Positions 28,379-63,848 of a DNA stretch of 64,000 nucleotides are shown here, one piece after another. The translations under genes and the position numbers were made by a program. The stretch lies in the NCBI GenBank assembly GCA_043806735.1, contig JAZDGR010000178.1, positions 2,634 to 66,633 on the forward strand, in the 5' to 3' direction. The notes beneath the pieces were generated by a model. The model was given only the letters and a program-made list of their open reading frames with translations, had not been told where the DNA came from and searched no databases. The first letter of the stretch is position 1; the number at the start of each line of letters is the position of its first letter. The stretch is from a bacterium (lineage in GTDB: Bacteria > Bacteroidota > Bacteroidia > Bacteroidales > FEN-979).

Positions 28379-28435
28379 TGAAATGGTGAAATGGCGAAAT
28401 TAAGAAATTTAAGAAATTGGGAAATTAGGTAATTA
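28379..28435. repeat. 8-bp-periodic degenerate tandem array (NNNGAAAT-type units)
   Basis: Units are gtgaaatg gtgaaatg gcgaaatt aagaaattt aagaaatt gggaaatt aggtaatt. The array starts 10 nt from the SDR start codon, in a divergent spacer. Confidence 0.85.
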
Positions 28436-28478
28436 TGGGAAGCAATGATTTTGTATTTTCGTCACATAATCCTCTTCT

Positions 28479-29669
28479 ATGACTGAACGGGAACTCTTCT
28501 ACAGGTATCTGGGATTGCCATCTTTCACTCCGATGGGACTGGAGATTGAACATGCCGAGGGGATTTATCTCACGGATAAAACCGGGAAAAGTTACATTGA
28601 CCTCGTTTCAGGAATCTCGGTTAGCAACATTGGCCATCGCCATCCAAAAGTTCTGGATGCCATCCGGGATCAACTGGAAAAATACCTTTATCTCAACGTA
28701 TACGGAGAATTTATTCAATCTCCACAGGTCCAACTTGCCAAAAGGCTAGTGGATCTTATGCCTGCCCCGCTTGAATCCGTCTTCTTTGTAAATTCTGGCA
28801 GCGAGGCCATCGAAGGAGCTTTGAAGCTGGCTAAAAGGTACACCGGTCGCAGCGAGGTCATCGCATTTTATAATGCCTATCATGGTTCCACCCAGGGAGC
28901 TTTAAGTATTCTGGGGAACGAGGTGATGAAACATCCTTTCAGGCCTCTAATACCAGATATCAGGTTCCTGAGATTCAATAACTTTCCTGACCTGGAGCAG
29001 ATCTCGGAAAAAACAGCATGTGTTGTGGCGGAGACAATCCAGGCAGAAGCCGGCCTGATCCTTCCGGTTGACAGTTATCTTTTTCAACTCAGAAAAAGAT
29101 GTTCTGACACTGGAACTCTCCTCATCGTGGATGATGTTCAGATGGGTTTCGGGCGCACCGGAAAGCTATTCTCCTTTGAGCACTATGGCATTGTGCCTGA
29201 TATTCTTGTGCTTGCAAAGGCTTTTGGAGCAGGCATGCCACTGGGTGCTTTTATCGCCCCCAAAAAGGTCATGGACACCCTGGCATTCGATCCGGAATTG
29301 GGCCACATCACCACCTTTGGAGGACACCCGGTAAGTTGTGCAGCTGCGCTGGCAGGTTTAGAGGTGCTCTGTTCCGGAAGTTTGTTGGCCGATGTCGAAG
29401 CAAAAGGCAGGCGATTCGAAGCGAAACTAGCGGGTCATCCAGTTATTAAATCATTGAGGAGGAAAGGATTGGCAATTGGCGCTGATTTGGCAGGCCCGGG
29501 AAAGAGAAAGCTTTTTATGGAGGCAGTTGTTGGGAAAGGGATCATCATTGACTGGTACCTGTTTCAACCCGCCACCTTCAGGATAGCGCCTCCTCTGACG
29601 ATCACTTTCGAGGAGATAGACCTTGCTTGTGAAGCGTTGACAGCGGCTTTGGAGAAGGTCAAGATGTAA
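28479..29669 (+). CDS. class-III PLP-dependent aminotransferase (acetylornithine/GABA aminotransferase family)
   Basis: SGSEAIEGALKLA, DDVQMGFGRTGKLF and LAKAFGAGMPLGAF motifs. Confidence 0.88.
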   Translation: MTERELFYRYLGLPSFTPMGLEIEHAEGIYLTDKTGKSYIDLVSGISVSNIGHRHPKVLDAIRDQLEKYLYLNVYGEFIQSPQVQLAKRLVDLMPAPLESVFFVNSGSEAIEGALKLAKRYTGRSEVIAFYNAYHGSTQGALSILGNEVMKHPFRPLIPDIRFLRFNNFPDLEQISEKTACVVAETIQAEAGLILPVDSYLFQLRKRCSDTGTLLIVDDVQMGFGRTGKLFSFEHYGIVPDILVLAKAFGAGMPLGAFIAPKKVMDTLAFDPELGHITTFGGHPVSCAAALAGLEVLCSGSLLADVEAKGRRFEAKLAGHPVIKSLRRKGLAIGADLAGPGKRKLFMEAVVGKGIIIDWYLFQPATFRIAPPLTITFEEIDLACEALTAALEKVKM

Positions 29670-29696
29670 ATTCGTCATTCGTAATTCGTCATTTGA
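29669..29696. repeat. heptamer array aattcgt cattcgt aattcgt catttga
   Basis: It fills the 30-nt spacer between the aminotransferase stop (29667-29669) and the aat GTG start (29700). Confidence 0.85.
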
Positions 29697-29699
29697 AGA

Positions 29700-30398
29700 G
29701 TGCCTATTTATTTGTTACCTGATGAACCTGTTTTCCCCCCGGCATCGGAAGCGGAGGAGGAAGGTTTGCTTGCGGTCGGCGGGGATTTCTCAGTTGACAG
29801 GTTATTGGCGGCATACGCTTCAGGGATCTTCCCCTGGTTTGTCCACGACGGAACTATCTACTGGTTCTCACCAGATCCGCGCCTTGTATTATTTCCAGGC
29901 AACTTCAAAGAATCCCGATCGCTGATTCGGATTCTACGAACTGCGCGATTCGAGGTGCGTTTTGATGAGGATTTTGAAGGGGTTGTCAGGGCCTGTTCGA
30001 AGGTGAATCGTTCACATGAATCAGGCACGTGGATCAGCGAAGATTTCATTTCGGGATACCTAGAGTTGCATCGGAAAGGATTTGCCCATTCTGTTGAGAC
30101 CTATCATAACGGCGACCTTGTCGGAGGTCTGTACGGTGTCTCCCTGGGTAGAGCCTTTTTTGGCGAAAGCATGTTCTTTACCTATTCAAACGCATCGAAA
30201 GTGGCGTTGTTTTTTCTGGTTGAACGATTAAAGGAATGGGAGTTCTCCTTTATCGACTGCCAGGTGGAGACGGAACATTTCCGGAGGATGGGAGCTTGTT
30301 CAATACCCAGATCTGAGTACCTGAAACTACTGGCTTCAGCCATTCGCTTTCCGACTAAAAGAGGGAGATGGGGGAAGGAGGTGAGACGTAAGACGTAA
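29700..30398 (+). CDS. aat: leucyl/phenylalanyl-tRNA--protein transferase
   Basis: GLLAVGGD..LLAAYASGIFPWF and GGLYGVSLGRAFFGESMF motifs. GTG start. Confidence 0.9.
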   Translation: MPIYLLPDEPVFPPASEAEEEGLLAVGGDFSVDRLLAAYASGIFPWFVHDGTIYWFSPDPRLVLFPGNFKESRSLIRILRTARFEVRFDEDFEGVVRACSKVNRSHESGTWISEDFISGYLELHRKGFAHSVETYHNGDLVGGLYGVSLGRAFFGESMFFTYSNASKVALFFLVERLKEWEFSFIDCQVETEHFRRMGACSIPRSEYLKLLASAIRFPTKRGRWGKEVRRKT

Positions 30399-30431
30399 GA
30401 CGTAGGACGTGGGACGTAGGACGTAAATGAG
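30383..30431. repeat. heptamer array (RRGACGT units, 7 copies) overlapping the aat stop codon
   Basis: Units are gagacgt aagacgt aagacgt aggacgt gggacgt aggacgt aaatgag. The last four codons and the TAA of aat lie within the array. Confidence 0.9.
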
Positions 30432-30442
30432 ATAATAGTTCT

Positions 30443-31672
30443 TTACAGCCCGAGTTTTTGGCGGATATCCAGGGGAATGGTATTTTTATTGACCATGATA
30501 TCCATGGTTTTCAGTTCCACGAATGGTTTTGATGCATAAAAGTATCCCTTGTACTTGTGATCGCTGAAACCCCAGGAATTCTTCACGATATAATATACAT
30601 TGCCATTCTGGTCTCTTGCTATTCCAATGATGTGCATCCCATGGTCGTCGGTAGTCTGATAATTATCGAACTCTGTCTGGCGTAATTCCTGGGTGATTTT
30701 TTTCTCAGGAACAGGGCGATTAAACTTGTAGAGAAGTTCTTCCTTTTCTTTCTCGGTCATCTTCTCCCAGCGGGACTGCTCCAATCCGGAAAGCTCGGGT
30801 GCGTCCTTATCCGGGACAATGGCAACACCGTTCTTCCAGGAGAATCCTTTTTCACTTACATCGCTGCCCCACACCACGGTGTATCCGTTTTCCAATGAAT
30901 TATCCAGGATCCTCATCATATCCTGCAGGGGGACATTATAAACTTCGTCCATCAGCCAGTTATCGGGGATTTCCAGGATGAATTTGGAATAAAAGGGATG
31001 GTGCGTGTAGGATGTGATCTCCACGTAATCATCGGGATTGAGCCCCAGCATTTTTGCATAAGAAACCGGTGTGTACTCGACTCCTTGATAGGTGAATTTT
31101 TTCGGAATTTCTCCGAGGTAGACATCCAGGATCCCGGTATATCCTTTGATCCAGACCGGACTTAGTTTCTTATTCGGATTTTTCAGGACCGCATTCACGT
31201 ATGCTTCCAGCAGTGCATCCATCTCTCCATGCACTGGTTTATCTTCTCCAATTACGAGGCCCGTATAGATTTCTTCCGGGACCAATCCATAGTTTTTAAG
31301 AACGTAGGTCACGTCGTGAGCCGCACCTCCTCCAGCAAAGTTGTGTTTACCCTGAAAGCGGACATAAAGCGGGGCTTTATCGGCATACGTTTTATATACC
31401 ACGAACATTTCGGAAAGGTCAAAGGTATCTTTCCCCTGCCTCAGCAATTCCGATTCCAGAAAAGAAATAGCTGAATAGCTCCAGCAGGTACCTGACCGGT
31501 ATTGATTTTTAACAGGCGTAGCCGGAAGTTTGATGACTTCTGTAAAAACATAGCCGGTATCGGCTTTTTTCTCTTTAACACTATCCTGGGCGAAGGATGA
31601 AATTGAAAATCCCAGGAAAATCAATGCTAATAAAGTAATACTCTGTTTCATTGTGATATCTTTTTTTTTCAA
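30443..31672 (-). CDS. pepC: aminopeptidase C (peptidase C1B, bleomycin-hydrolase family) with signal peptide
   Basis: Active-site QYRSGTCWSYS, HGMHIIG and a C1B-type C-terminus. Confidence 0.88.
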   Translation of the reverse strand: MKKKDITMKQSITLLALIFLGFSISSFAQDSVKEKKADTGYVFTEVIKLPATPVKNQYRSGTCWSYSAISFLESELLRQGKDTFDLSEMFVVYKTYADKAPLYVRFQGKHNFAGGGAAHDVTYVLKNYGLVPEEIYTGLVIGEDKPVHGEMDALLEAYVNAVLKNPNKKLSPVWIKGYTGILDVYLGEIPKKFTYQGVEYTPVSYAKMLGLNPDDYVEITSYTHHPFYSKFILEIPDNWLMDEVYNVPLQDMMRILDNSLENGYTVVWGSDVSEKGFSWKNGVAIVPDKDAPELSGLEQSRWEKMTEKEKEELLYKFNRPVPEKKITQELRQTEFDNYQTTDDHGMHIIGIARDQNGNVYYIVKNSWGFSDHKYKGYFYASKPFVELKTMDIMVNKNTIPLDIRQKLGL

Positions 31673-31681
31673 AAGTAAAAA

Positions 31682-32656: not shown

Positions 32657-32718
32657 GCAAGAATGTTACTGCAAAGACATTCAGACGCAACGGACGCAAA
32701 GATAAGGAATTCAACAAG

Positions 32719-33363: not shown

Positions 33364-33365
33364 GT

Positions 33366-36300
33366 ATGCGAGTAGTTCAATTCGTTTTCTTGCTGGTTGC
33401 CTTCCTGAACGTTGCTGCCCCGACCTCCGGCCAGGGTATGAAGGGAAAAGATTCGAAGACGCATACCATTTCAATTCAGAATTCAGAATTCAGAATTCAG
33501 AATTCAAAATTTAAAAATCAACGTACTGATAGTAATTCGGTTCTTTCAAAGCTGATTCTAATGGTTGGACGGGAGCCGGTGGTGCCCGGGGATTTGGAAC
33601 TCGTCGCCGCCATGGATTTCATTCAATCCCTTGACGGGTATTCAGCTACATATACCACCTTCCACGAGTTGAAAAAGCATCCGAAACAACTTCACGATGT
33701 CGACCTGGTTTGGTTTCATCGTCCGGATACAATGGATTTTTCACCCGAGGAATCTGACCTGAAAATGATCGGTTTATTACAGGAATATATTTCCGGAGGC
33801 GGATCAATGCTGCTTACCCTGGATGGGTTCAGGTACCTGAATTTGCTGGGTGTTGAATCAACGATCCCATCCACCCGGTTAAAGGCTTCTATCGATGAAG
33901 GGTACGGACGAAAACTGGGATTTCATGCTTTCCGGGAGCATCCCGTGTTCCAAGGCCTCCATGGAGGATCTTACGTTTACCAGCCGGCTAAAGATATGAC
34001 GGTCAGGGTTCACGGTTTTTTTGGCGATACTATTCCTGAAAAGGGAAACGTGGTTGCGATCGATTGGGATTATATCTTTTTCCGAGAAAACTCGAAACTG
34101 ATCATCGAGTATACCTTGGGCGGCGGAAAAGTGCTTGCTGTGGGCGGCTATACTTATTTTTCGCAGCCGAACGGCAACCGGCTTCAACTGGATAAATTCA
34201 CCACAAACACCTTTGCATACCTGACTGGGGAATCTGAGAATCAGCCTGTCTTCTTTTGGAATTATTCGATCCCGAAGGTTGTCCAATGCTCTGAAAAAGA
34301 ACAAAATCGCGATGTCATGTTTGCCGTAATCCCCGAAAGCAACAATTGGGATATGCCAACCCATCCTATCCAGTTCTCGCCGAGACCTGCCACTGACAAT
34401 TATTGCGAAGTTGCCGGTGAGCGGATGGTGGTCATGGGACGTGAAAGAGGCGGCATTGAAGAGATCTGGGCCCATCCTTTCATGGCGGTCCGGGACTATG
34501 AAGCCGGTGTGCATCTTGTTGGTGGCAGAGGTGAGTTATCTGACAGTGTAATCTGGCTTAAAACCCTAACTCCCGAAATCGTGATCCGCCCTGATTGCTT
34601 TATCAGATATTACAGAATTGGGGCTGACTACCTGAAGGAAATTGTCGCGGCGGATCCGCTGAATACGTCCGTTGTGGTTCATTATGAATACCATGGAGCC
34701 GATCCGATTATTCTAGAAATCCGGTTTACAAGCAACCTAAGGTTCATGTGGCCCTATCCTGAAACAGCCATTGGCACCCTATGTTACAGATGGGATGCCG
34801 ATTATCATGCTTACCTTATTCAGGACCAATCGGGGGATTTCAACGTACTGGTTGGGGCAACTAAGGCGCCTTCGGATCATTCGGTCAGGAAAGGAGATGG
34901 ATTCATCATCGATGCCGGGTTATCTTACTCCCTGAAACCAGGAGAGGCAATGGATCTGATCATCTCCTCAGGGAATGAAGGGGTTGAAAAACTACAATCG
35001 GAATTTGACCGAGCTATTCGCAATCCGGAACAAATCTTTACAAATGCCAGAGAGCATGTAGATAACTTGCTGACTACTAGTGTGATGATCACTTCCCCGG
35101 ACAAGAACTTTAACTTGGGTTACCGGTGGGCACTCGTAGGAATTGACCGCTTTTTTGTGACGACTCCCGGGATGGGATCGGCTCTGATAGCGGGATATGG
35201 TACTACGAGACGGGGTTGGGACGGTGGCCAGAAAGTCAGCGGAAGGCCGGGCTACGCATGGTATTTTGGACGAGATGGCGAGTGGAGCGGCTTTGCTTTA
35301 CTGGATTATGGAGATTTCGAAAAAGTGAAGAAGAACCTCGAATTTTACCGGAAATACCAGGATCTAAACGGGAAGATCTTCCACGAAGCCACTACTTCCG
35401 GCGTCATCCATTACGATGCTTCAGATGCAACTCCCTTATACATTGTATTGGCAGGCAAATACTTCCGGCATTCCGGCGATACCAATTTCCTGAAGGACCA
35501 CTGGCCTGCGATTAAAAAGGCCATAAACTTCTGTTTTTCCACAGATACTGACGGGGATCACCTGATTGAAAATACTGGCGTAGGGCATGGTTGGGTGGAG
35601 GGGGGGGAACTCTATGGTTCCCATTCTTCCGTTTATTTGACCGGGTGTTGGGCTGCAGCTCTTGAAGAAGCTGCCACCATGGCTTCTACTGCAAAGGATC
35701 AGGAGGCAACCAATTACTGGAAGGAAGTTAAGGTGCTTAAAGACCTCATTGACAGAAATTTCTGGAATATTAAAAACGGGTTTTATTCGTATGGCTTGAA
35801 TCTGGATGGTTCGTTCCGGACAGAGCCGACGATCCTGCCCTCGGTTCCTGCTTATTTCGGAGTCACGGATAAAGATAAATTTCGTTTTGTTTTAAACCAA
35901 TACGCCTCCAATGCTTTCTCCACTAACTGGGGTACCCGGATCATACGTGAAGATAGTCCGATGTTCAAGCCCACCGGTTACCACTATGGAAGTGTCTGGC
36001 CTCTTTTTACGGGATGGACGGCCTTAGCAGAGTACCGGTATGGAAATTACCCTCAGGGATTTGCGCATATCCTGAATAACCTGAATGTTTACAAGTCGTG
36101 GGGGCTCGGCTATGTCGAGGAGGTTCTGAACGGCGCCGAATACCAGCCATCCGGCGTTTGTCCGCACCAATGCTGGTCGGAGACTATGGTGATTCAACCT
36201 ATTCTGGAAGGGATGCTGGGGATTGAGGTATTTGCAGAGGAGCACAAGATCCGTCTCTCTCCCCGGTTGCCTGCAGACTGGGATTCCTTGAGGGTTGAGC

Positions 36301-36845: not shown

Positions 36846-36857
36846 CTTATTAACCTA

Positions 36858-38432: not shown

Positions 38433-38455
38433 TTCAAAATTTTAACTGAAACAGT

Positions 38456-40609
38456 ATGAGAATATGTATCCTGATCCTTTTTAGCCTCTCCTTATGGGGA
38501 GGTGTTGAATCCCAGAATCTCAAGGCTGTAGAAGATTATCTCCGTTTGGATGCCCGGGCAGATGACCCCTTGTATACCACCTATGCTGCTGCCATAAAGC
38601 GATCAAGGCTCTATGGAGATAAAGCCTACAAGATGGATTATTATTCTGATTGCCGGCCGGTTACCTATTCCTCCGATCAGGCGGGAAGTATGTTCTGCCT
38701 CTGGAAAGTGGATGAAGTGGTGATCCGGAATATCGGCGAGTATTTCAAAAAGCCTGTAGTGTTGTTTTCTTTTCCTGATATGGCAATTCTGGAGTATGAA
38801 CCTTTCAGGGGGATCCGGGTCCGGGAGACCTTTTTCGTTTACAGTTCCCGCATTACCCTGGTTGAGATGGAGGTTACTAACCTGGATCGAATTGTCCATG
38901 AAGTTGTCGCGTATCCGGTACTTTGGCTGGGAAATGATTCCCTTCGGATCGAAGGATTTGACAGTTTACACAACGGTTATATTACGACCCGGTATGAGAG
39001 TCCGTACCGATTGATCAGCAGTCTGAAGATGGAATACGGCTATCCCACGAAAACAAGGGACTTCTTTGCCAGTAATTTTCCGGTCGCTTCGTATGGGGGA
39101 TGTTCCGGTGACATGGATCAGTTCTATAATCTGATCAAGACCGATTTCTATTCCGCTACAAGGCTTGATTTATTAAATAATAAAGATACTGGTCTTGTTG
39201 ATTTTATATCACTTCAATTAAAGAAACGATTAAGGCCTGGTGAACGAGCTAATTTTAGGTATATCCGGGGAGTTCAGGATCAGAAAGAGGATCTGACAGC
39301 TCTAAAAGATGAAATTGATCAGCTCAGGAAGATTTATTTGAAGACCTTTTACGAAGACAATTTGATCCTGTTTTCAAAGATTCCACGGATCCGGTTCAAA
39401 ACGAAAGATGAAAAGCTGGTGTACCTCGGAGCTTTCAACCTGGTCCGCAGTTCAATGGTTCCTCCATCAGGAAAAACAACCTATAATTTCTATGTTTTCA
39501 GCCGCAATCCGCTCTGGGGATGGGGGCATGGACACCAGGTGCTGCATGAATCCCTCAGCATGCTTGCTTATGTATATATGGATCCCGAATCGGCCGAAGG
39601 ATCGCAACGGGTCTATATAGAGCAGCAGCGTGAAGACGGACTGATCGCTTACCGGCACGGGCCCAGGGGATTACAGGATTACCCGTATAAGAACAAGTCC
39701 ACTACCTCTGCTCCCTTTTTCAGCTGGATCAACTTGGAACTTTATCAGGTAAGTAAGGACAAAAAGTTTCTCGAAGAGGCTTATGTTGCTGGGTGCAAAT
39801 ATACCGATTGGCTGATCAGGAACAGAGACCAGGACGCGGACGGTACCTTTGAATGGGGACCTTATGGCATCATTGAGAATGTCAGGGACTGGTACAATGC
39901 TGTGTTTCAGGTATCTGCAGAAAGATATCTGGATGTGGACAAGGAGGATATTTCTGACGAACTTGAGTGTCTTGATCTTACACTAATGGTGATCAAGGAG
40001 GAAAAGAGTCTGACGAAGATGGCACAAATACTTGGAAAACAGGAAGAAGCAAAGGCCTGGATGGAAAAAGCCGAAAAAACCAGTAAACTTGTCAATGAAC
40101 GAATGTGGGATGATTCCACAGGATTTTACTACTCTGTCAACAAAGGCGATCATGGCTGGTTTTTCATGAACCGTGATCTCCGGCGGCAGGAACTCATCGG
40201 ATTTCTGCCGTTGTGGGCAGGGGTAGCTCCACCGGATAGAGCTTCGAGCCTGGTGGAAACCCTTACCGATACCACCCGGTTTTGGCGAAGGTATGGTATC
40301 CCTACCCTTTCAGCAGCAGATCCCTGGTACAGTCCGAATGTAGACTATTGCTGTAAATGGAACGGACCGGTTTGGTTATTATGGGACTACATGGTGTATG
40401 ATGGACTGAAGCAATATGGATACGATTCACTGGCAAATTTACTGGCCGGCAAAATGGTACATTGTGTAGTCACCCAACTGAAAAAGAATCACAATTATTG
40501 GGAATCTTACAGTCCTGATAATGAGGTATTAAACTGTCCATCAAATTACATTTGGGATGCGATTATGGCGAGGCTTCTGATCGAGGAGTACATGGAAAGT
40601 GAAAAGTGA
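38456..40609 (+). CDS. six-hairpin glycoside hydrolase (GH63 / trehalase-like)
   Basis: Signal peptide. The C-terminal (alpha/alpha)6-like motifs are DADGTFEW, RYGIPTLS and WNGPVWLLWDYMVYDGLKQYGY. Confidence 0.6.
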   Translation: MRICILILFSLSLWGGVESQNLKAVEDYLRLDARADDPLYTTYAAAIKRSRLYGDKAYKMDYYSDCRPVTYSSDQAGSMFCLWKVDEVVIRNIGEYFKKPVVLFSFPDMAILEYEPFRGIRVRETFFVYSSRITLVEMEVTNLDRIVHEVVAYPVLWLGNDSLRIEGFDSLHNGYITTRYESPYRLISSLKMEYGYPTKTRDFFASNFPVASYGGCSGDMDQFYNLIKTDFYSATRLDLLNNKDTGLVDFISLQLKKRLRPGERANFRYIRGVQDQKEDLTALKDEIDQLRKIYLKTFYEDNLILFSKIPRIRFKTKDEKLVYLGAFNLVRSSMVPPSGKTTYNFYVFSRNPLWGWGHGHQVLHESLSMLAYVYMDPESAEGSQRVYIEQQREDGLIAYRHGPRGLQDYPYKNKSTTSAPFFSWINLELYQVSKDKKFLEEAYVAGCKYTDWLIRNRDQDADGTFEWGPYGIIENVRDWYNAVFQVSAERYLDVDKEDISDELECLDLTLMVIKEEKSLTKMAQILGKQEEAKAWMEKAEKTSKLVNERMWDDSTGFYYSVNKGDHGWFFMNRDLRRQELIGFLPLWAGVAPPDRASSLVETLTDTTRFWRRYGIPTLSAADPWYSPNVDYCCKWNGPVWLLWDYMVYDGLKQYGYDSLANLLAGKMVHCVVTQLKKNHNYWESYSPDNEVLNCPSNYIWDAIMARLLIEEYMESEK

Positions 40610-40670
40610 ACAATGAACAATGAAGGTGAATAGGGAGTGGTTAGTAGTGGATAACGGGATGGGAGGTTAG
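40594..40670. repeat. heptamer array (GAANANT-type units decaying 3'-ward) overlapping the stop codon
   Basis: Units are ggaaagt gaaaagt gaacaat gaacaat gaaggt gaatagg gagtggt tagtagt ggataac gggatgg gaggtta. The gene's TGA is at 40607-40609. Confidence 0.8.
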
Positions 40671-40728
40671 GTTCTTTGATGAGTTTTATAGACCTTTGCA
40701 ATGAATTTGTAGTGAAAGTGAGTTGTAT

Positions 40729-48847: not shown

Positions 48848-48940
48848 AAAAAGAAAGTTGATTGGGTATTGATACAAAGATATAAAAAGAAGGGAATTAA
48901 TAGCTTTGTACTACAATATAAGCACGAAAACCGGGATTGA

Positions 48941-50128
48941 ATGAAAAACACGCAATTCATTATCTTTCTCTCCGTCGTCATTCTAGTTTACGGATCGGTG
49001 AATTTGTATATTTTCCTGCGCGGATTCCAGGCTATCCCTGCCGGATCCTGCTGGCGCCCGTGGTTCAGCGTGATTTTCTGGGGTTTTGTTTCCACCTTTA
49101 TCCTTGCCAGGGTCCTGGAACAGATTACTCCTTCTATACTGAGTGCTGCTATGACATGGATCGGTTCCTTCTGGCTCGGTTTTATGCTGTTTTTCTTCCT
49201 GGCCGTGGCAGCGATAGATTTGGCCCGGCTGCTGAACTCCCTTTTTCACTTCTTCCCTGCTTCCTTTTACATGAATCCTGCCTATACGAAGCTCTTTACC
49301 TTTTTTATCGTGCTTGGTTTTTCTGTCATTTTGGTAGTAGGCGGTTTCATCTACGCCCGGATGCCGCGGATTAAGGAGTTACATATCACCATCTCGAAAC
49401 CTAAAGCGAAACCGGGGACATTGACGATTGTGATGGTTTCCGACATTCACCTGGGGACAATTATCGCCAGCAGGAAGGCTAACCGGTTAGTGGAAAAGAT
49501 CAATTCCATTGATCCTGATATTGTCTTATTCGCCGGAGATGTGGTGGATGAGGACCTGGCACCGGTTATCAAAAACAACCTTGGCGAAGCCTTATCCGGG
49601 ATTAAATCAAGATTAGGTGTTTATGCCATCACCGGCAACCATGAATACATCGGAGGCGTGGGGCCGGCTGTGAACTACCTGGAAGATCACGGGATCAACA
49701 TACTGCGCGATACCGCCATCCTGGTTGATGACCAGTTTTACCTGGTTGGTCGCGACGACCGGGACAAACCCCGGTTTACCGGAAAATCCCGAAAAGAGCT
49801 GAAGGATATTATCCAGGGAGTTGACACAAGTTACCCGGTCATCCTGATGGACCATCAGCCGTTCCATCTTTCCAAAGCGGCGGAACTTGGCGTTGACCTG
49901 CAGCTCTCCGGACACACACACCATGGCCAGCTTTGGCCGTTCAATTACATCACCAAGGCTATTTACGAATTAAGCTGGGGCTATAAGCGGATCGGGAACA
50001 CCCATTTCTATGTTTCCAGCGGTTATGGAACCTGGGGGCCGCCGTTGCGCCTGGGCAACCGGCCAGAGATCGTGGTGGTCGATATACTATTTATTTTACC
50101 GCAACCATTTCCCCGGAATAGGAAATGA
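48941..50128 (+). CDS. membrane-anchored metallophosphoesterase (YkuE-like)
   Basis: Four N-terminal TM helices followed by the SDIHLG, GDVVDE, GNHE and GHTHHG motifs. Confidence 0.85.
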   Translation: MKNTQFIIFLSVVILVYGSVNLYIFLRGFQAIPAGSCWRPWFSVIFWGFVSTFILARVLEQITPSILSAAMTWIGSFWLGFMLFFFLAVAAIDLARLLNSLFHFFPASFYMNPAYTKLFTFFIVLGFSVILVVGGFIYARMPRIKELHITISKPKAKPGTLTIVMVSDIHLGTIIASRKANRLVEKINSIDPDIVLFAGDVVDEDLAPVIKNNLGEALSGIKSRLGVYAITGNHEYIGGVGPAVNYLEDHGINILRDTAILVDDQFYLVGRDDRDKPRFTGKSRKELKDIIQGVDTSYPVILMDHQPFHLSKAAELGVDLQLSGHTHHGQLWPFNYITKAIYELSWGYKRIGNTHFYVSSGYGTWGPPLRLGNRPEIVVVDILFILPQPFPRNRK

Positions 50129-52528
50129 TTTTTTCGGGGTTCGTCGTGATTTCTAGTCCTGTTCCATGGTTGGGGCTGACAATGACAACTTTAAAAATCC
50201 GGGTTTGCAACATTCCGGCAAAGTTTCCTTTTCGTTTTCCGATGGTGAGCGTCGCATTTTCATGGTCCCAGGCGAAGTCGATTGTTGTGTATTTTCCATT
50301 TTCGTAATTGTAATTATCCCCCTCATCCTCATACAGAGTAAACATTGCATCAGTACCCGAATAGAGGCGAAGCTCGATCGGATCTGGGGATTTTTCTTCA
50401 GCGTATTGCAGGAACGGGCCCATCGGGATGATGGAACCTGCTCTTACATATAGCGGAATGATGTCGATGGGTGTTTCACGGGTCATTTTTGTGCCGCCCT
50501 GAAGTCTGGTCCCTGTCCAGAAATCGAACCAATCGGTTCCTGCCGGTAAATAAAGGGAAACCGAATCCGGATCATCCAGTAATCTTGTTCTTGTGGTGTC
50601 CTTCGGGAAATATTGTTCCTCCGTTACCGGAGTTACCAGAATCGAAGGGCCAAACATATACTGATTATCAATCTCATAAACGTTTTTATCCCGGGCGAAA
50701 TCCATCGGGAGTCCACGCATCATAGTATAGCCTTCCGATGTGACTTTCCATGCTACTGAATAGATATACGGCATCAGTCGATAACGGAGATGGAGGAACC
50801 GGCTCATTGCCTCATAATTCCAGTCACCCACATCGCCGAATTGCCAGACCTCCCGCGGACTATGGGTTCCGTGAGACCGGAAGACCGGGCAGAATGCACC
50901 AAATTCGAACCATCTGACATACAATTCTTTGTATGATGGATCTTTACATCCTCCAGGGTATTCGCCCGGACCAAATCCTTTATCATGTCCCTTGAGAAAG
51001 AAAGCACCGATATCCGTAGTCCAGTATGGGATCCCTGCCATGCAGAAATTTAGTCCGGCCGAAATCTGACGACGAAACACGCTGTAGCTGGCGTTGATAT
51101 CACCCGACCAGGTGATGGCGGCGTTTCGCTGCTGTCCGGCAAATGCTGACCGGGTCAAAATCAATACCCGTTTATCCGGGAAATCCTTACGCCATTTTCC
51201 GTAAACTCCTTCAGTTGTCATCAGGGAGTATGGATTGAGGTATACAGCTATCGGTCCCAAGGCCGTATTCCCAAACTTCTTGATGTTGGTTTCCGACTCT
51301 TCAAATGTATGCTGGTCGGCCAGTTCAGGCTCGGTGGCATCCATCCACAACCCGTCGACGCCTTTTGCCATCAGGCCATCGCTGATATAGCGCCAGTAAA
51401 TATCCCGGGCCTGGGGATTGAATGCATCATACAAATAACCGCTGCTCCAATGTACTGGCAGATAGGTCAAGCCTTTTTCGTTTAGTTCCCTGAAGATCTT
51501 TGTATCCCGCCCAAGGGCAGGCCAGATCGAAATCACATAATGAACATGAAAGAGGGTATGGAGTTTTTCCAGTGTTTTTGCCGGCTCTGGATAAACTTTC
51601 GGATCGAATTCCATTGAACTCCACATGTTATTCTCACCCCAATAACGCCAGTCCTGGACGATCACATCAAGGGGAAGGCGGCGCATACGGTATTCCGCAA
51701 CAACATCAGTGAGCTCTTTGGCATCGATATAACGTTCCTTGCTTTGCCAGAATCCGTATGCCCATTTTCCAAACATGGGAGCCTGTCCCGTAGCCATCCG
51801 ATAGCCAGCAATGACCTCTCCATATCGTCACCAAAAAAAAGATAATAATCGGCCTGGTTCCCATATTCCGACCAGAAAGTGGCTCCGTTACTACGGTCGT
51901 CTCTAAAATAGGTTTTGGAGTAGTTGTCCCACAGGATCCCCCAGCCTTGCGTCGAGACAAGAAACGGATTTACTGCCGTAGTATTGGTCTGGATGAGCGT
52001 CACCTCTTTCCCCCGGTGGTTCATCCAGCCGTATTGATGCTGCCCTAAACCATAAATCCCTTCGTCGGGAGTAAGTTTGAACGTTTCAAACACGTTCCAT
52101 GAGGGCTCCTCACCGATCATTACAGGAGAAAATGCACGTTCTTTTTCCGCGATGAGAAGGTTGCCTTTGTGGTCAGTGAATCTGCAAAGAATCGTAGCCG
52201 GGTCGATCTCAACCGTAATTGCCGCTGTTTTCAAGAGTATTTTATCTGCTTTTCTGTCCAGGATCCAGGATGCCGGAGCCCAGGATCCGGTGACTGAAAG
52301 ACTCTGTTTTTCGGGTATTTGTTGTCCGGGAGCGCAAGTCACGTGCACGATCCTGTCGGTACAAATCGCTACTCTCAGGGTAAAGAGTTCGCACCTAAGA
52401 AACACTCCATTAGCCATTTGTTCCAATTTGTATTTCTCTTTCGGAAGAGCCATGCCGGGGTTGGATGAAAACATGACACAAGTAAGTGTAGCGAGCAAGA
52501 ACTGCACACAGGATCTGGGTGTTTTCAT
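50091..52528 (-). pseudogene. GH31 alpha-glucosidase/alpha-xylosidase split by a 1-nt frameshift
   Basis: The N-terminal ORF 51662..52528 and C-terminal ORF 50091..51797 overlap. The conserved sequence ..YYLFFGDDME / EVIAGYRMATGQAPMFGKWAYGFWQSKERY changes frame at about 51817-51820. GVDGLWMDATEPE and WSGDI are intact. Confidence 0.85.
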
Positions 52529-52564
52529 GCGGTAAATGTAAGAAGAAAACCCTATTTTTGCGAG

Positions 52565-53623
52565 ATGAAGAAAAGCTGGCGCCTCATCTAACCTTGCTTA
52601 TCACATAAACATCGACTTGCTGGATATTGAATATGGCGAAGTCGAGAAAAACCAAAACCTTTCGGAGATCCTGGCTCCTTATGTATCATACCAGGTTATT
52701 GATAAATTAGCCAGGACAACGCGAAATATCTTTGATGTCAGGAAGATCAAGCCGGGGAACCAGTATGCCTTCATTACTACGCGTGATTCTGCGAAAACAA
52801 CTCTCTACTTTGTTTATGAGATTTCTGACACGGACTTTGTGGTCTATGATTTCCGTGATTCTTTGAGAGTATATAAAGACCGGAAGAAAGTCACCAGGAC
52901 GATAAACAGTGCATCGGGAACCATCACTTCCTCTCTCTGGAATACCTTCCTAGACCGTGGACTGGACATTAACCTTGCCTTGAAGTTATCAGATGTATAT
53001 GCCAAACTATAGATTTCTATGGACTTCAGAATGGAGACAATTTCAGGTTATTATATGAAAAGCTATCGATTAATACAAACCAGATAGGAATCGGAAACAT
53101 TATTGCCTGCGAATTTGAATCGGGGGGGAAGAAATTCTATGCTTTTTACTTTGTGCAGGACAGTGTGGGGGAGTATTTTGATGAACTGGCCCAGAGGTTG
53201 CAGCGCACTTTCCTCAAAGCACCTCTTCGTTTTTCGAGAATCAGCTCGCGATTTTCGCATGCACGTAAGCATCCGATCCTCAAGATCTACAGGCCGCATT
53301 TTGGGGTCGATTACAGTGCACCCCGTGGAACTCCCGTTGTCGCCCTGGGAGACGGCAAAGTGATTGAGGCCGGCTGGCATGGAGGATTCGGAAGGTATGT
53401 GAGAATCCGTCACAATAGTGTCTATTCAACCGGGTACGGTCATTTAAGCGGCTATGGACCGGGGATCAAAGCAGGTAAATATGTGAAACAAGGAGATGTC
53501 AGTGGTATTACCAGCATGCGCTGGAATTATCAAGGAGGGGATTTGAGGTTTCTGTCCTGGCCCATTCCTGTTCTCACCTGCGCAAGAAAATCCAGGATAG
53601 TGCAATCAGGTGTACCGGCCTGA
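52565..53623 (+). pseudogene. M23 peptidoglycan metalloendopeptidase, multiply disrupted
   Basis: MKKSWRLI* at 52565-52591. Homology resumes at 52617. There is a frameshift at about 53005 (..LSDVYA / TIDFYGLQNGD..). The HFGVDYSAP motif is intact, but the C-terminal HxH region is frameshifted after about 53500. Confidence 0.75.
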
Positions 53624-53625
53624 CC

Positions 53626-54153
53626 ATGAATAACTACTCTTTTTTGAATCCGTTGAAGCATTGGAAAGTGTGCCGGACCATCTGGAAAGAGAATCCGGAT
53701 GTTGTCATTTTGAACGGACGAAATGAATTAAAACTGGGAGCTATTTCTTCCTGTCTACTTCGGGTAAATAAAATCATTTACAGAAGAGGAAACGGAAAAC
53801 GGATCCGGCCACAACGGATTGCCGTTCTGGGTCGACTTTCGATGGAAAAGGGGGTCGACCTGGCCATCATGGCTTTTAAGAGAATCCGACAGGAGTTACC
53901 GGCTGCCAGGCTGGTCATCATCGGGGAAGGGGGAGAACGGCAAGCTCTGATGAGGTTATCGGATCAGTTTGGGATGGACGGGAGTGTCGAATTTGTCGGA
54001 TTCCAAGAAAACCCCACGGAAGTTCTTTCGGGGTGTTCAGTTCTGATGATCCCTTCGCGATGGGAAGGTTTTTCCTATGCAAAGCTGGAAGCCATGAGCC
54101 TCAAAATGCCTGTCGTTGCTTTCGGAGAAACAGGATTTGATTATTCCCGATAG
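53626..54153 (+). pseudogene. GT4-family glycosyltransferase fragment (internal and terminal deletions)
   Basis: ..PDVVILNGRNELKLGA.. joins directly to ..RIAVLGRLSMEKGVDLAIMAF..IIGEGGER..PSRWEGFSYAKLEAMS.. . It is 175 aa against the roughly 370 aa expected. Confidence 0.65.
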
Positions 54154-54179
54154 TGCAAACAAAGCTCCGATCTCCTTTC

Positions 54180-54541
54180 TCTCTTCAGGGCAGATCCGTT
54201 ATCTGGCTGACGCAGGATGGGAAATCGGATCCCACCTTGTTTCCCACAAATCGGTTATTCAACTTTCAGACCAGGATGTGAGAGATGAACTTGAACAATC
54301 CAAAACCCAACTGGAAGGAATCTCCGGGAAGCCAGTCGTTACAGTTGCTTATCCCTATGGTTCCTATGATGAACGGACTCTGCGAATGGTTAGGGAGATA
54401 GGATTCCATTTCGGATTAACGACTGATCAGCCTCCCCTTGGCAACTTTCCTTTGCTTGAACTCCCCAGAAACCATGTCAAAGGAGCCAGCTGGCACCATA
54501 GATTCTCTTTCACGCGCATTTTCCGGCATCATGGAGCTTAA
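54180..54541 (+). pseudogene. polysaccharide deacetylase (NodB-type) C-terminal half only
   Basis: ..GQIRYLADAGWEIGSHLVSHKSV..ELEQSKTQLEGISGKPVVTVAYPYGSYD.. is present. The N-terminal metal-binding half is absent. Confidence 0.6.
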
Positions 54542-55131
54542 GGTCTATACCAGAATTGACGATCCTGAGCTTGTTATCGGGTGGAAGAGCTTCGAAGAAG
54601 AGGCAGAAATTTTTCCTCAATCGAGGTATTCCTGGGCAAACTGTTGGTGGAAGCACATGTGGAGCAAACAATCCCTGTATACTATTGCAGTGAAAAATGA
54701 TGTGGTGGGAAGACTATATTCATTCGCTGCGAACAAGTGTAAGGCGGAATATCCGGGCCCGGCTCCGGAAGCTGGAGACTTCCGGGAAGGTAACATTCAG
54801 ATGCATTGATAAACAGACTGATTTCGAAGAAGTTGAACAGGTTCTGGGTACTATGTATGCTATCAGGTTAAGAGAATCAGGCCGAAATCCCAAAACTCGG
54901 GATGAACTTCTTTTCAGAAAAGAGTTGATCACTCAAGGATTTCAGGAGAAGTACCTCGTGCTTTTCCTTTTGCAGTATGTCAGGCATTTATCCCTGGAAG
55001 TTGGATTTCTCGGCAGGAGGAAAACCCCAGACGAAAGTTACCGTTTTCAGTTCATCACGAAGGCTACGGGCATTACTGTACCGTGTTCTGTTGACAAAGT
55101 CTGGAGTCCAGACAAATTCATGAAGAGATGA
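54531..55131 (+). pseudogene. CelD/BioF2-like GNAT acetyltransferase, frameshifted and internally deleted
   Basis: MELKVYTRIDDPELVIGWKSFEEEAEIFPQSRYSWANCWWKH.. continues in another frame as ..WEDYIHSLRTSVRRNIRARLRKLETSGKVTF.. . The expected middle part is missing. Confidence 0.55.
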
Positions 55132-56194: not shown

Positions 56195-56196
56195 AC

Positions 56197-56706: not shown

Positions 56707-56721
56707 ATGTGGTTTAATTAA

Positions 56722-56750
56722 CAGTTTGCAGTTGGCAGTTGCAGTTGGCA
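56722..56750. repeat. heptamer array cagtttg cagttgg cagttg cagttgg
   Basis: It lies 16 nt upstream of the EXPERA start on the minus strand, and 14 nt downstream of the SDR stop. Its complement, CCAACTG, recurs at 58896-58923. Confidence 0.8.
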
Positions 56751-56763
56751 AAGGTAAAATAAA

Positions 56764-57588: not shown

Positions 57589-57609
57589 GAATTACGAATT
57601 ACGAATTAG
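57589..57609. repeat. heptamer array gaattac gaattac gaattag, abutting the SDR start codon
   Basis: On the minus strand it reads cctaattc gtaattc gtaattc ATG. The ATTCGTAATTCGT core is the same as at 29669-29696. Confidence 0.85.
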
Positions 57610-57688
57610 GCAAAAATCGAGATTTCAATCGTAAATTTAAAATTATACTTCGTAAATTCATAAGTTTGTATGAACCAAATACGAGATT

Positions 57689-58834
57689 ATGAGGACAAGT
57701 ATACACCTGCTGCTCTTGCTGATCCTCGGATCAGGAGCGATCATCTCCTGCCAGAATTCAGGAAACCGGAATGCATCATCCGATACTTTAACACTTTCCG
57801 TCATGAAAACACCATTTGGCATTGCCGACAACAAAGAGGTTTTCCTCTATACACTCACTAACAAACATGCGATCACAGTAAAGATCACCAACTATGGCGC
57901 CATCATCACCCAGATATGGATTCCGGACAAATCAGGAAGACCGGGGGATATTGTGCTAGGATATGACAGCCTGCAGGATTACATTCAAAATAATCCCTAT
58001 TTCGGAGCCATTGCGGGAAGGTATGCCAACCGGATCGCCAAAGGGAAGTTTTCGCTGGATGGAAAAACTTATCAACTGGTAAAAAACAACGGGAATAACC
58101 ATCTGCATGGTGGAGCTAAGGGACTGGACAAAGTCGTGTGGGATGCCCACGAATTTTCGGATTCGCTGGTAACCGGGGTAGTTCTGACGTACCTGAGCAA
58201 GGATGGAGAAGAAGGGTATCCCGGAAATTTGAACATTCAGGTCACCTACTCATTAAATAACCTGGATGAACTGGAAACGCTTATCGAAGCTACAACGGAT
58301 AAACCTACCCCTGTTAATCTTTGCAACCACACCTATTTCAATCTTAGCGAAGCCGACACCAATATTCTGGGGCACATTCTTTCTATCGTAGCAGCAGAAC
58401 TCACCGATGTAAATGATGAGCTGATTCCTACAGGTACGCTTCCCCCAATTGCAGGAACGCCTATGGATTTCAATATACCTCATCAAATCGGTCAGGGGAT
58501 CTCTGACGTTAAGGGCGGGTATGACCACAACTATGTGTTGTCGAAAACTCCCGGAGCATTTGCCTTTGCTGCGACCTTGATAGATCCACGGTCTGGACGC
58601 GAAGTCAAGATCTATACGACCCAACCCGGGATTCAGTTCTACTCAGGGAATTTCCTGGATGGCACCATCCAAGGAAAGGGCGGGAAAATTTACCAAAAAC
58701 ATTATGGATTATGCCTTGAAACGCAGCATTTCCCAGACTCCCCGAACCAGCCAGCCTTTCCGAATACCATTCTGAGACCAGGGGAGGAGTATAAGGAGGT
58801 GACGGTGTACAAGTTTAGGGTGACTGATCAATGA
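57689..58834 (+). CDS. galM: aldose 1-epimerase (galactose mutarotase) with signal peptide
   Basis: GRYANRIA, NNGNNHLHGG and CLETQHFPDSPN motifs. Confidence 0.9.
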   Translation: MRTSIHLLLLLILGSGAIISCQNSGNRNASSDTLTLSVMKTPFGIADNKEVFLYTLTNKHAITVKITNYGAIITQIWIPDKSGRPGDIVLGYDSLQDYIQNNPYFGAIAGRYANRIAKGKFSLDGKTYQLVKNNGNNHLHGGAKGLDKVVWDAHEFSDSLVTGVVLTYLSKDGEEGYPGNLNIQVTYSLNNLDELETLIEATTDKPTPVNLCNHTYFNLSEADTNILGHILSIVAAELTDVNDELIPTGTLPPIAGTPMDFNIPHQIGQGISDVKGGYDHNYVLSKTPGAFAFAATLIDPRSGREVKIYTTQPGIQFYSGNFLDGTIQGKGGKIYQKHYGLCLETQHFPDSPNQPAFPNTILRPGEEYKEVTVYKFRVTDQ

Positions 58835-58930
58835 AGAGAGAACAGAGAACAGTGAACAGTGAAAAGTGAATAGTGAATAATGACTGGTGACCGGTAACTG
58901 CCAACTGCCAACTGGTAACTGCTAACTTAC
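58833..58930. repeat. 14-unit heptamer array spanning the whole galM-galK convergent spacer
   Basis: Units are gaagaga gaacaga gaacagt gaacagt gaaaagt gaatagt gaataat gactggt gaccggt aactgcc aactgcc aactggt aactgct aacttac. Both stop codons (58832-34 and 58922-24) lie in or at the array. Confidence 0.92.
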
Positions 58931-60085: not shown

Positions 60086-60155
60086 ACAAAGAGTTCGATT
60101 TACGGCCGAAGGTAGAAAATTTTTTACTTTTGCACCCGGATTAACCTACATTCTA

Positions 60156-62687: not shown

Positions 62688-62731
62688 TATCCCGCAGGCA
62701 ATTACCGTTGGCACGCTGATGACGCGGATAA

Positions 62732-62920
62732 AACGCGGGTTTTGGCCCCCTGACCGTCCCGTCAGAACTGAAGCAATAGCCTGTCCAATTGCATCTGCTG
62801 AATCCCCAAGCCTCCAATTTCCGGAATGCAGATGTGGTGCTAACAGCCGACTGCGTGCCCTTTGCCATGGGTAATTTCCACGCCCGTTTCCTGAAAGGGA
62901 AATCGCTGGCTATTCAATAA
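62732..62920 (+). pseudogene. fragment of a 4Fe-4S-type protein (..WPVQLHL..ADCVPFA..FH..FLKGK.. family) with an in-frame TAG
   Basis: My own translation is ..SELKQ*PVQLHLLNPQASNFRNADVVLTADCVPFAMGNFHARFLKGKSLAIQ*. TAG at 62777-62779 sits where relatives (recalled from memory) have Trp. Both N- and C-terminal parts of the family are absent. Confidence 0.5.
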
Positions 62921-63002
62921 AAAATGTTGATATCGCGGAAATCTGTAAAAAAATCAGAAAATCAGACCCAAAATTGTTAATAACCCCTATTTTTGCCAGG
63001 AA

Positions 63003-63813
63003 CATTTCGGACTACAGTACTATAAAAGACAGGGATTTATTCCAGGGGATTTAGAAGGTGAATCGGTTTCCAAGATCCTCGAGTACGCCTGCGACGATTG
63101 GTGCATAGCAGAGCTGACAAAAGCCATGGGTAAAGAGAATGAATAACCAGTGGTTTGCGCCTTTTGATCCCTATGAGGTCAATTTCAATTACACCGAAGC
63201 AAATGCCTGGCAATACAGATTCTATGTTCCTCAGGATATTTCCGGACTGATCAACCTCATGGGTGGAACCAAACAGTTTTCGAAACGACTGGATGACCTC
63301 TTCTCTGCGAGTACCGAAACCACCGGCCGGAATCAGGCAGATATTACGGGACTTATCGGTCATTATGCTCATGGAAATGAACCGAGTCATCATATGGCAT
63401 ACCTTTACAACTATGTGGGACAACCATGGAAAACGCAGGAGCTCGTACATCAAATCATGCAAAATTTTTACACCAACACCCGGGATGGTTTATACGGAAA
63501 CGAAGATTGCGGACAACTATCGGCCTGGTATGTATTCAGCGCCCTGGGCTTTTATCCGGTAACTCCAGGGTCTGATTTTTATGCGATCGGTACACCCTTG
63601 TTCCCCTTTGCCAAGATGGAGCTGGAGAACGGAAAAACTTTCACAATTAAAGCAAACAACCTGCATAGTGAGAATCGCTATATTCAATCCTGCACGCTAA
63701 ACGGAAGAAACCATGAGGCACCAGCCATAAGCCATGAGGAGATCATGACCGGAGGAGAACTTCGTTTCGAAATGGGACCCAAGCCAAATAAGGATTGGGG
63801 AGTCTCGTTGGCA
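63003..63813 (+). pseudogene. GH92 alpha-mannosidase, C-terminal third only, with internal deletion/frameshift
   Basis: ..GFIPGDLEGESVSKILEYACDDWCIAEL..GKENE* runs to the TAA at 63144-46. In the +1 frame it continues ..PFDPYEVNFNYTEANAWQYRFYVPQD..YAHGNEPSHHMAYLY..GNEDCGQLSAWYV..LNGR..GGELRFEMGPKPNKDWG. About 500 N-terminal residues are absent, and no in-frame stop occurs before the window end. Confidence 0.75.
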
Positions 63814-63848
63814 GATACGGGATACGGGATACGAGTAAGATTATCCGG
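63814..63848. repeat. heptamer array gatacgg gatacgg gatacga gtaagat tatccgg
   Basis: It lies exactly where the GH92 homology ends, which is the expected stop region. Confidence 0.8.

Follow-up and report, generated by a model that had tools for sequence, protein, structure and literature searches.

What are the short tandem arrays that fill the spacers of this locus, and why do they so often lie where genes end? The locus is a 64,000-nucleotide (nt) stretch of contig JAZDGR010000178.1 from a member of the Bacteroidota (referred to as the window), and the elements in question are degenerate direct repeats, most of them with a period of seven nucleotides. A preliminary description had proposed that these arrays belong to no named feature class and that they are set apart by their location at gene boundaries. 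Neither proposal was upheld. The arrays belong to the heptameric simple-sequence repeats (SSRs), a class that has already been described under several names, and short spacers explain most of their location. What had been overlooked is a positional signal of another kind, a strand polarity that depends on the gene end nearby: arrays frequently extend into the ends of genes, and they do this solely in sense polarity. We consider it somewhat better than even, at a probability of about 55%, that the arrays are heptameric repeats of the long simple-sequence repeat (LSSR) or short tandemly repeated repetitive (STRR) kind, which would be made by slippage, kept where they are tolerated and filtered at the level of transcript and translation.

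Arrays were detected by Tandem Repeats Finder (TRF) at a relaxed score, by direct sequence reading and by a lag-match scan compared with dinucleotide-preserving shuffles. As exact-protein look-ups found no further assemblies of the window organism, related loci served instead. A metagenome scan with galM yielded 80 such loci, and the combined set comprised 97 sources and 1.04 Mb, i.e., 800 kb of related Bacteroidota and 240 kb of aat control loci, all but one of the latter from other phyla. In this set, 104 arrays of period 7 were detected, and periods 6, 8, 9 and 10 gave 14, 22, 7 and 0 arrays, respectively. Just one of the 104 period-7 arrays was located in the control loci.

The polarity was most evident in co-directional spacers, where stop triplets within arrays numbered 101 on the sense and 33 on the antisense strand and the sense composition was A 408, T 249, G 167 and C 139. 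Arrays with a clear stop-rich strand were gene-oriented in 14 cases and opposed in none, although up to three doubtful in-ORF (open reading frame) calls might hide exceptions, and A exceeded T in 22 of the 27 co-directional arrays (p=0.0015). In convergent spacers the stop-rich strand fitted the nearer gene in 11 cases, did not fit in 4 and was ambiguous in 3. The possibility that this polarity is inherited from the background composition of spacers was rejected, as 162 array-free co-directional spacers displayed no strand bias (893 vs. 914 stop triplets, A equal to T).

In addition, composition depended on which gene end was closer. Co-directional arrays nearer the upstream stop contained 26% G and 9% C, those nearer the downstream start 6% G and 21% C (Mann-Whitney p=3e-4). 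Taking all contexts together, the 37 stop-proximal arrays consisted of A 42%, C 10%, G 22% and T 26% and carried 177 sense and 50 antisense stop triplets, compared with A 31%, C 20%, G 19% and T 30% in the first 35 nt past the stops of array-free spacers. The 24 start-proximal arrays, at 12.5% G, resembled ordinary leaders (14% G). Relative to the stop codon, stop-side arrays mostly began at -22 to +11 nt, which makes the stop of the gene itself one of the first units. Genes ending at an array used TGA in 20 of 42 cases, as compared with 33% of all genes. The polarity was strongest where an array overlaps the stop; without overlap, a hand count gave about 7 versus 3. Each stop-side unit carries one TGA or TAA, so that three units suffice to stop every reading frame. 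We did not adopt such all-frame termination as a selected function in itself: the arrays far exceed the three units needed, and once an array overlaps the stop codon, each of its units necessarily contains a stop triplet.

Within the window, the lag-match scan identified 10 period-7 arrays compared with 0.1 in dinucleotide shuffles, one array of period 8 and none of periods 6 and 9-13, which bears out the heptamer period with a single 8-bp locus that had been read from the sequence before. The period-7 arrays hold 2.9-7 copies each, and about 14 units where two arrays adjoin. All nine loci named earlier were recovered with their units by TRF and direct reading. That list was incomplete, as the array at 28233-28269 and a weak one at 52257-52288 had been overlooked. 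The arrays are the following.

Positions 28233-28269, minus strand: TTCNCTG, five copies (sense GAACAGN), inside the coding sequence of an SDR gene.
Positions 28373-28435, no strand assigned: array with an 8-nt unit in a divergent spacer, about eight copies, drifting from AAATGGTG to GAAATTAA (listed also as GTGAAATG to AAGAAATT).
Positions 29670-29693, plus strand: ATTCGTC/ATTCGTA, 3.4 copies, in the aminotransferase/aat spacer.
Positions 30376-30426, plus strand: AGACGTA (GACGTAA/GACGTAG), 6-7 copies, in a convergent spacer at the aat 3' end.
Positions 33473-33521, plus strand: AATTCAG, 5.6-7 copies, inside the ORF of a 1159-aa glycoside hydrolase, with a stop-free sense strand.
Positions 40593-40640, plus strand: degenerate GTGAAAA/GTGAACA/ATGAACA units at the 3' end of a GH63-like gene.
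Positions 52257-52288, minus strand: weak GGATCCN-type stretch (TRF score 34, 69% matches) in the N-terminal part of a split GH31 gene.
Positions 56722-56750, minus strand: CAGTTGG (CCAACTG on the minus strand), 4.3 copies including one 6-nt unit, in the spacer between two co-directional minus-strand genes.
Positions 57589-57608, minus strand: GAATTAC (TAATTCG on the minus strand), 2.9 copies, on the leader side and abutting the ATG of a second SDR gene.
Positions 58832-58885, plus strand: TGAACAG (GAACAGT/GTGAAAA/GTGAATA), 6.6-7.5 copies, starting at the galM TGA stop (58832-58834).
Positions 58890-58927, minus strand: AACTGCC/AACTGGT, 4.6 copies, extending to the galK stop (58922-58924, minus strand).
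Positions 63814-63860, plus strand: GATACGG, 2.9 copies (63814-63833), followed by ATCCGGC and ATCCGGG, directly after the catalytic domain of a GH92 pseudogene.

Several of these arrays illustrate how closely repeat and gene end are interlocked. The aat stop (30396-30398) and the last seven or so codons fall within the array at 30376-30426 (6 stop triplets sense, 0 antisense), the TGA stop of the GH63-like gene (40607-40609) lies within the second unit of its array (4 sense, 0 antisense), and the array starting at the galM stop (8 sense, 0 antisense) occupies, jointly with that reaching the galK stop, the entire galM/galK convergent spacer. The array at 29670-29693 fills a 30-nt spacer from the aminotransferase stop TAA (29667-29669) to the aat start GTG (29700). 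The array at 56722-56750 follows the second SDR gene, whose stop is about 13 nt away, and precedes the ATG of an EXPERA-family gene by about 12 nt, and the 8-nt array is located 4 nt from the first SDR start codon and meets with its other end the promoter-like motif of the aminotransferase gene.

The window units reduce to about seven consensus families (AACAGTG, AATTACG, AAGACGT, AATTCAG, AAAAGTG, AACTGCC and ACGGGAT). Direct reading agreed with the earlier remark that the units are degenerate and drift along the arrays. The recurrence of families in both orientations held as well: with rotation and strand allowed, three array pairs share an identical consensus (AACAGTG, AATTACG and AACTGCC), where 0.09 would be expected (P about 0.001). 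The unit at 57589-57608 is identical to that at 29670, and the unit at 56722-56750 equals that at 58896-58927 in opposite orientation. All ten period-7 arrays are located in the 28-64 kb part of the window, the carbohydrate-utilisation half, and none in 1-28 kb despite five spacers of 300-540 nt; hand arithmetic from the scan results puts the probability of this at about 0.003 if placement were uniform. A recently acquired island as the explanation of the array-free part was rejected, as this part encodes ClpB-like, GyrA, FtsY, MiaB-like and XerD-like proteins.

As had been proposed, the window arrays showed no hairpin potential. Array-bearing window spacers folded no better than shuffles (z from -1.85 to +0.9), and the spacer at 58832-58927 was rejected as a hairpin or bidirectional terminator on the basis of z values of -0.22 and -0.36 on the two strands. 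Rfam and tRNA scans of the window were empty, and scans of the window for sigma-70 promoters and intrinsic terminators showed no enrichment and nothing at arrays. Accordingly, the arrays are neither terminators nor repetitive extragenic palindromic (REP) elements, and with units of 7-8 nt that directly abut one another they are also not CRISPR arrays, whose repeats measure about 24-48 nt and are separated by unique spacers; both exclusions had been made before and stand. Strongly folding array pairs occurred only in two relatives, L042 (1584-1708) and L037 (2322-2490), where convergent spacers carry inverted pairs of the same family (GTGAAAA... / ...TTTTCAC) that form long hairpins of -41 and -40 kcal/mol (z -6.0 and -4.1) and may act as bidirectional terminators.

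The claim that no named class exists for such arrays did not survive comparison with the literature. Heptamers are reported as the most abundant category of long SSRs in many bacterial genomes (Mrazek 2007, as cited in PMC4679880), and the window arrays share the features of heptameric SSRs, i.e., at least three head-to-tail copies of 7 nt, a lineage-specific over-representation of period 7, a mostly intergenic location and a limited number of families. A close parallel is found in the TAACTGA repeats of marine Beggiatoaceae, Cyanobacteria and five Bacteroidetes, which in forward orientation block every reading frame with a stop and often run across the stop codon of the upstream gene; the Bacteroidetes spacers that contain them also contain other heptamer repeats (MacGregor 2015, PMC4679880). 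The window arrays are likewise tandem, of 7 nt, mostly intergenic, unstructured, forward-oriented (14 vs. 0 in co-directional spacers, 177 vs. 50 stop triplets on the stop side) and overlapping with upstream stops, and the hosts again are Bacteroidetes. However, about seven families occur here and none of the arrays is made of TAACTGA, the nearest being AACTGCC/TAACTGC at 58896 and an TAACTGGA 8-mer in L001 and L002, the two closest genomes (see below). As the unit differs, the arrays are not TAACTGA repeats. Moreover, the stop-bearing arrays keep to the stop of the upstream gene, with the next start, as far as longest-ORF calls place it, 45-217 nt away; the Beggiatoa repeats mostly sit within a few nucleotides before the downstream start. 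The 24 start-proximal arrays here form a separate G-poor class.

The STRRs of cyanobacteria are 7-bp repeats as well, with transcript stability and translational coupling proposed as roles (PMC2670836). They resemble the window arrays in occupying many intergenic loci with few families per genome and in being able to occur inside genes, but they belong to heterocystous cyanobacteria and often form hairpins, which the window arrays do not. STRR units are CCCCAGT, TTGGTCA and CAACAGT; the window unit GAACAGT is one base from the last of these, and none of the three is a window unit. Since host and units differ, the arrays are not STRRs in the strict sense.

In Xanthomonas and Nostoc, heptamers of the GGGAATC type (GGGGAYT) are found about 28 nt from the ORF on their 5' side but about 160 nt from the downstream ORF (Rehm 2015, PMC4692102). 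With these and with the long repeats of 5-11-nt units surveyed by Mrazek the window arrays share the over-representation of period 7, a location that is intergenic in about 90% of cases and nearer the 5' ORF, and a position that relatives have in common even where length and sequence differ. Units of Xanthomonas and Nostoc, however, are G-rich, quadruplex-forming and without strand preference, whereas the arrays described here are A-rich, form no quadruplex and are strand-polar. For heptameric SSRs an origin by polymerase slippage with a 7-nt contact has been proposed (PMC4679880, PMC4692102). What the present set adds is a vocabulary of multiple families and two composition classes that are set by the position at the gene end, in a Bacteroidota clade that is densely populated with heptamer arrays. 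We know of no function or mechanism that has been established for heptameric repeats in any lineage.

With regard to location, 91 of 110 arrays were found outside ORFs, even though about 94% of the sequence lies in ORFs. Among spacers of at least 10 nt, 50 of 369 carried an array (18% of convergent, 14% of co-directional and 9% of divergent ones), and array-bearing spacers were about 10-55 nt longer than array-free ones, depending on spacer type, indicating that arrays add to spacers or create them. The earlier rule, by which arrays start no farther than about 20 nt from a stop or start codon, follows almost automatically when arrays of 20-95 nt occupy spacers that are 30-113 nt long. At least three arrays of the window (28233, 33473 and 63814) lie outside spacers altogether. 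At 63814 the rule fails, because the GH92 remnant is truncated and frameshifted and has no in-frame stop before the end of the window; this array, which had been placed near a stop or start codon, takes the position of a linker in a pseudogene.

The in-ORF arrays that were studied are real coding sequence at tolerant sites, and their units are stop-free. The array at 33473, correctly described as lying within an ORF, forms the variable linker that joins a signal peptide (…SQG[MVI]KG…H[TS]I) to the mature domain, which starts with LMVG[RQ]EP. These flanking motifs stay in frame in L001 and L002, where other heptamer units occupy the site. A mis-called start codon was therefore rejected as an explanation, given that the signal peptide and the mature-domain flank share one reading frame in all three genomes. 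Similarly, the array in the window GH92 pseudogene begins directly past the end of the catalytic domain. Full-length GH92 proteins of relatives have linkers that carry GGCATCC, GGATCCG or ATTACGA heptamers; these follow the catalytic domain in L018, L020 and L029, and L020 and L088 have them between the domains that lie farther downstream. The GGATCCN family of the weak stretch at 52257-52288 is found in coding linkers of relatives, too. The patch at 28233-28269 (35 nt) reads GAACAGG, GAACAGT, TAACAGT, GAACAGC and GAA and encodes ...RNREQLTVNSEKL...; it aligns without gaps to the orthologues in L001 and L002, with four to five residues replaced (TVNSE vs. KAIEE), and by its sequence looks like a length-neutral, conversion-like rewrite with the unit of the arrays at 40593 and 58832. 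For annotation, these findings call for caution, as repeat units write the last codons and stops of many genes and some linkers, and stop-free arrays can falsely extend ORFs.

The window has the Pfam content of a Bacteroidota genome, with many glycoside hydrolases, galM, galK, type IX secretion system (T9SS) sorting domains and a TonB-dependent receptor plug domain. By the Aat protein, the closest genomes were L001, a metagenome-assembled genome (MAG) of an uncultured Prolixibacteraceae (72% identity), and L002, a MAG of an uncultured Bacteroidetes (68% identity). Both carry 7- and 8-nt arrays in spacers orthologous to those of the window. An GGTGAAAT/GGTGATAT 8-mer stands beside the SDR start codon in the window, in L001 (about 3 copies) and in L002 (about 10 copies). 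The aminotransferase/aat spacer is occupied by arrays in all three genomes, with units and lengths that differ (TAACTGGA 8-mers and TTCTAAC in L001 and L002). Six GACGTAA units occupy the aat/peptidase spacer of the window, whereas that of L002 contains GGATCCN units and L001, where the two genes overlap, has no such spacer. At the divergent spacer that includes 57589, relatives have AAATCGT or TTACGAT units, and the galM stop is followed by the unit family of 58832 in L036, L042, L089 and L052, whereas many relatives have a minimal galM/galK spacer without an array. Overall, at least ten unit families were observed, of which AAATCGT/ATTCGTA, GATAATT, RTGAnnA, GGCATCC and GGTGAAAT recur across many contigs. 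Array density across relatives ranged from 0 to 7 per 10 kb and copy number from about 3 to about 23.

Near-identical contigs allowed an estimate of stability. Array copies were identical in four array-bearing contig groups (L032/L033, L052-L054, L064/L066 and L070/L071) at 99.8-100% identity, and L043 and L045 (99.7% identical) differed by one unit-level change in a 36-nt array, which accounts for 3 of 19 differences in 6.9 kb; as consensus assemblies were compared, low-frequency variants would escape. Since the corresponding spacers of relatives hold arrays too, in some cases built from an identical unit, the arrays are not an assembly artefact but a genuine, fairly stable trait of the lineage.

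How could arrays with these properties have arisen? We infer that tandem duplication and realignment during replication, i.e., slippage, with a preferred 7-nt register, would produce them, and that they would expand until meeting constrained sequence. They would therefore persist only in spacers, in the last codons of genes, in signal-peptide or inter-domain linkers and in pseudogenes. Only stop-bearing units would be able to cross a stop codon, or to vary in copy number, without lengthening the protein, just leader-like (G-poor) units would be tolerated before start codons, and the stop-free units inside ORFs would reflect the same filter. The drop in polarity to about 7 versus 3 off the stop fits what such a filter predicts. 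Turnover is supported by orthologous linker and spacer sites that are occupied by different unit families or are free of arrays. The stop-free units within ORFs, the leader-like composition at starts, the presence in pseudogene and linkers, the absence at orthologous sites and the longer spacers are jointly best fitted by slippage combined with filtering, and the arrays probably are dispensable, serving at most as unstructured spacer RNA and not as dedicated elements.

Several observations weigh against slippage and filtering as the full explanation. A limited unit vocabulary recurs across loci and genomes, as with the 3 identical pairs in the window where 0.09 are expected. The GGTGAAAT 8-mer is kept at the SDR start in three genomes although the proteins are just 68-79% identical, and RTGAnnA units follow the galM stop in several lineages; a neutral consensus should drift at such divergence. 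No slippage was observed, with the one unit-level change being the only one among near-identical assemblies. Three of the 14 polar co-directional arrays are located 24-47 nt from the stop and are still sense-oriented, and the C content of 10% on the stop side, compared with 20% in array-free spacers, indicates that a stop filter alone is insufficient. AATCGTN units upstream of the galM TAAGTTTG box in several lineages are left unexplained. In addition, the gene maps underlying these analyses are crude longest-ORF calls with uncertain start codons.

Some of these points leave room for an alternative that we regard as clearly less probable, namely that the arrays are functional RNA elements. In this case they would provide sites of about 7 nt for a single-stranded-RNA-binding protein (with a cold-shock, S1 or RRM domain) or act as unstructured punctuation at cistron ends, the stop-side arrays clearing ribosomes in all frames and shaping the 3' untranslated region and the start-side arrays serving as standby sites or enhancers of translation. 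Such a role would extend MacGregor's hypothesis on the TAACTGA repeats. It would account for a polarity that tracks transcription even in convergent, promoter-less spacers (11 agree, 4 disagree, 3 ambiguous), for the two position-specific composition classes and the non-random vocabulary, for the lack of structure in array-bearing spacers, and for the retention of units at orthologous sites where the encoded proteins are 66-79% identical. Binding of S1, Csp or CsrA has been proposed in the literature, and CspB binds as one protein per heptamer. However, many spacers of relatives are array-free, one orthologous spacer is reduced to a gene overlap, and the same families occur within coding linkers and a pseudogene. 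Copy numbers from about 3 to about 23 and at least ten unit families are hard to square with a single binding protein, which moreover is hypothetical, no candidate having been identified. A more elaborate version, which we hold to be slightly less probable again, is a punctuation code on the mRNA, in which A/G-rich, C-poor trailers that stop every frame at cistron 3' ends and A/C-rich, G-poor leaders ahead of start codons, both of conserved vocabulary, would be read by one or more single-stranded-RNA-binding proteins with a 7-nt footprint that set translation, Rho access or mRNA decay at gene boundaries. If true, the same logic could also explain the cyanobacterial STRRs and the Beggiatoa TAACTGA repeats. 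As composition depends on whether an array lies at a stop, a start or a coding linker, filter and RNA-binding code can be tested against each other.

It appears unlikely that a sequence-specific generator or spreader, acting by ectopic gene conversion, templated insertion or horizontal spread of units, has made the arrays as copies of a limited repertoire. Identical units do stand at non-homologous loci and in both orientations, the same families occupy spacers, coding linkers and the length-neutral, conversion-like SDR patch, and the TAACTGA repeats, which have been proposed to be transmitted horizontally, are similar to TAACTGGA in L001 and L002 and to AACTGCC/TAACTGC in the window. Yet neither an associated enzyme gene nor a terminal feature or target-site duplication was seen at any array, and the units drift gradually along the arrays, as local duplication and point mutation predict. 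The recurrences, in turn, could be a consequence of the composition filter, as the requirement for a stop triplet and richness in A narrows the allowed units enough to yield them.

A role at the DNA level, either as phase-variable contingency repeats that alter promoter spacing or as tandem or UP-like sites for a transcription factor or nucleoid protein, is in our view less probable still. Precedents are the 7-bp repeats of the Haemophilus influenzae hmw1A promoter and the TTTTGAT heptads of the Vibrio cholerae ctxAB promoter, both of them described as heptamers in tandem within regulatory spacers, with a copy number that can determine how active the promoter is. Three observations point in this direction: the AATCGTN heptamers located directly upstream of the galM TAAGTTTG box in several lineages, the array at 28373, which extends to and abuts a conserved TTTTGTAWTTTCG motif, and the single unit-level difference between L043 and L045. 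However, arrays are commonest in convergent spacers, which are promoter-less, and copy number is stable in the four contig groups at 99.8-100% identity, both of which make such a role less likely. Furthermore, polarity follows the gene end and not the promoter, a 7-nt period mismatches helical phasing, many arrays are convergent or coding, and the arrays involve dozens of loci with many different units, not a single regulated gene.

A chance pattern or a sequencing or assembly artefact, for which the split genes of the window might speak if they reflect indel errors, is close to negligible, given 10 arrays compared with 0.1 in shuffles, in-ORF arrays that preserve the frame between conserved flanks, relatives' independent assemblies (99.1-100% identical) that reproduce the arrays, and arrays at the orthologous sites of two other genomes.

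Two promoter-like motifs lie next to arrays. A conserved box, TAAGTTTG/TACGTTTG, is found 21-28 nt upstream of the galM ATG across lineages (window 57660-57688) and corresponds to the -7 promoter element of Bacteroidetes, TAnnTTTG. The aminotransferase gene is preceded, about 25 nt ahead of its start codon, by the non-coding motif TTTTGTAWTTTCGTYACAT, which is conserved between the window (28440-28478), L001 (8660-8713) and L002 (2590-2661); judged from its sequence, it is probably the -7 region of a promoter, with the 8-nt array stopping just short of it.

Split or decayed genes occur in the array-rich half of the window, at 50091-52528, 52617-55131 and 62690-63999, and represent either pseudogenes or assembly indel errors. 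The first is a GH31 gene in two overlapping frames (50091-51797 and 51662-52528), the second a run of ORFs of 131-175 aa including a glycosyltransferase fragment, and the third the GH92 remnant, which is without its N-terminus and frameshifted near 63140. Within the GH92 catalytic domain itself, heptamer-periodic CATCCAG / GGCATCA occurs at L018:11607-11631 and L029:17024-17060, encoding a loop G(I)xHxxSxIxHQ(D/E)IM that in the window remnant reads GRNHEAPAISHEEIM.

A borderline A-rich stretch at 14997-15023 (GAAAATA GAAAGATA GAAATTA; TRF score 31, 76% matches), located in the 542-nt spacer before a NUDIX-domain gene, was below the lag-match threshold. Among the relatives, period-9 arrays were present at L043:966-1176, and other units followed the galM stop: a 16-nt unit, GGTATGAGAGTAAGAG, in L024, a 17-nt unit, CGAATGCACAGGAATGA, in L047, and GAAATAAGAAATTAAGAAATTAGAAAATCAGG at L027:2190-2230, which contains the GAAATTAA 8-mer also seen at 28396-28435 of the window, a non-homologous locus.

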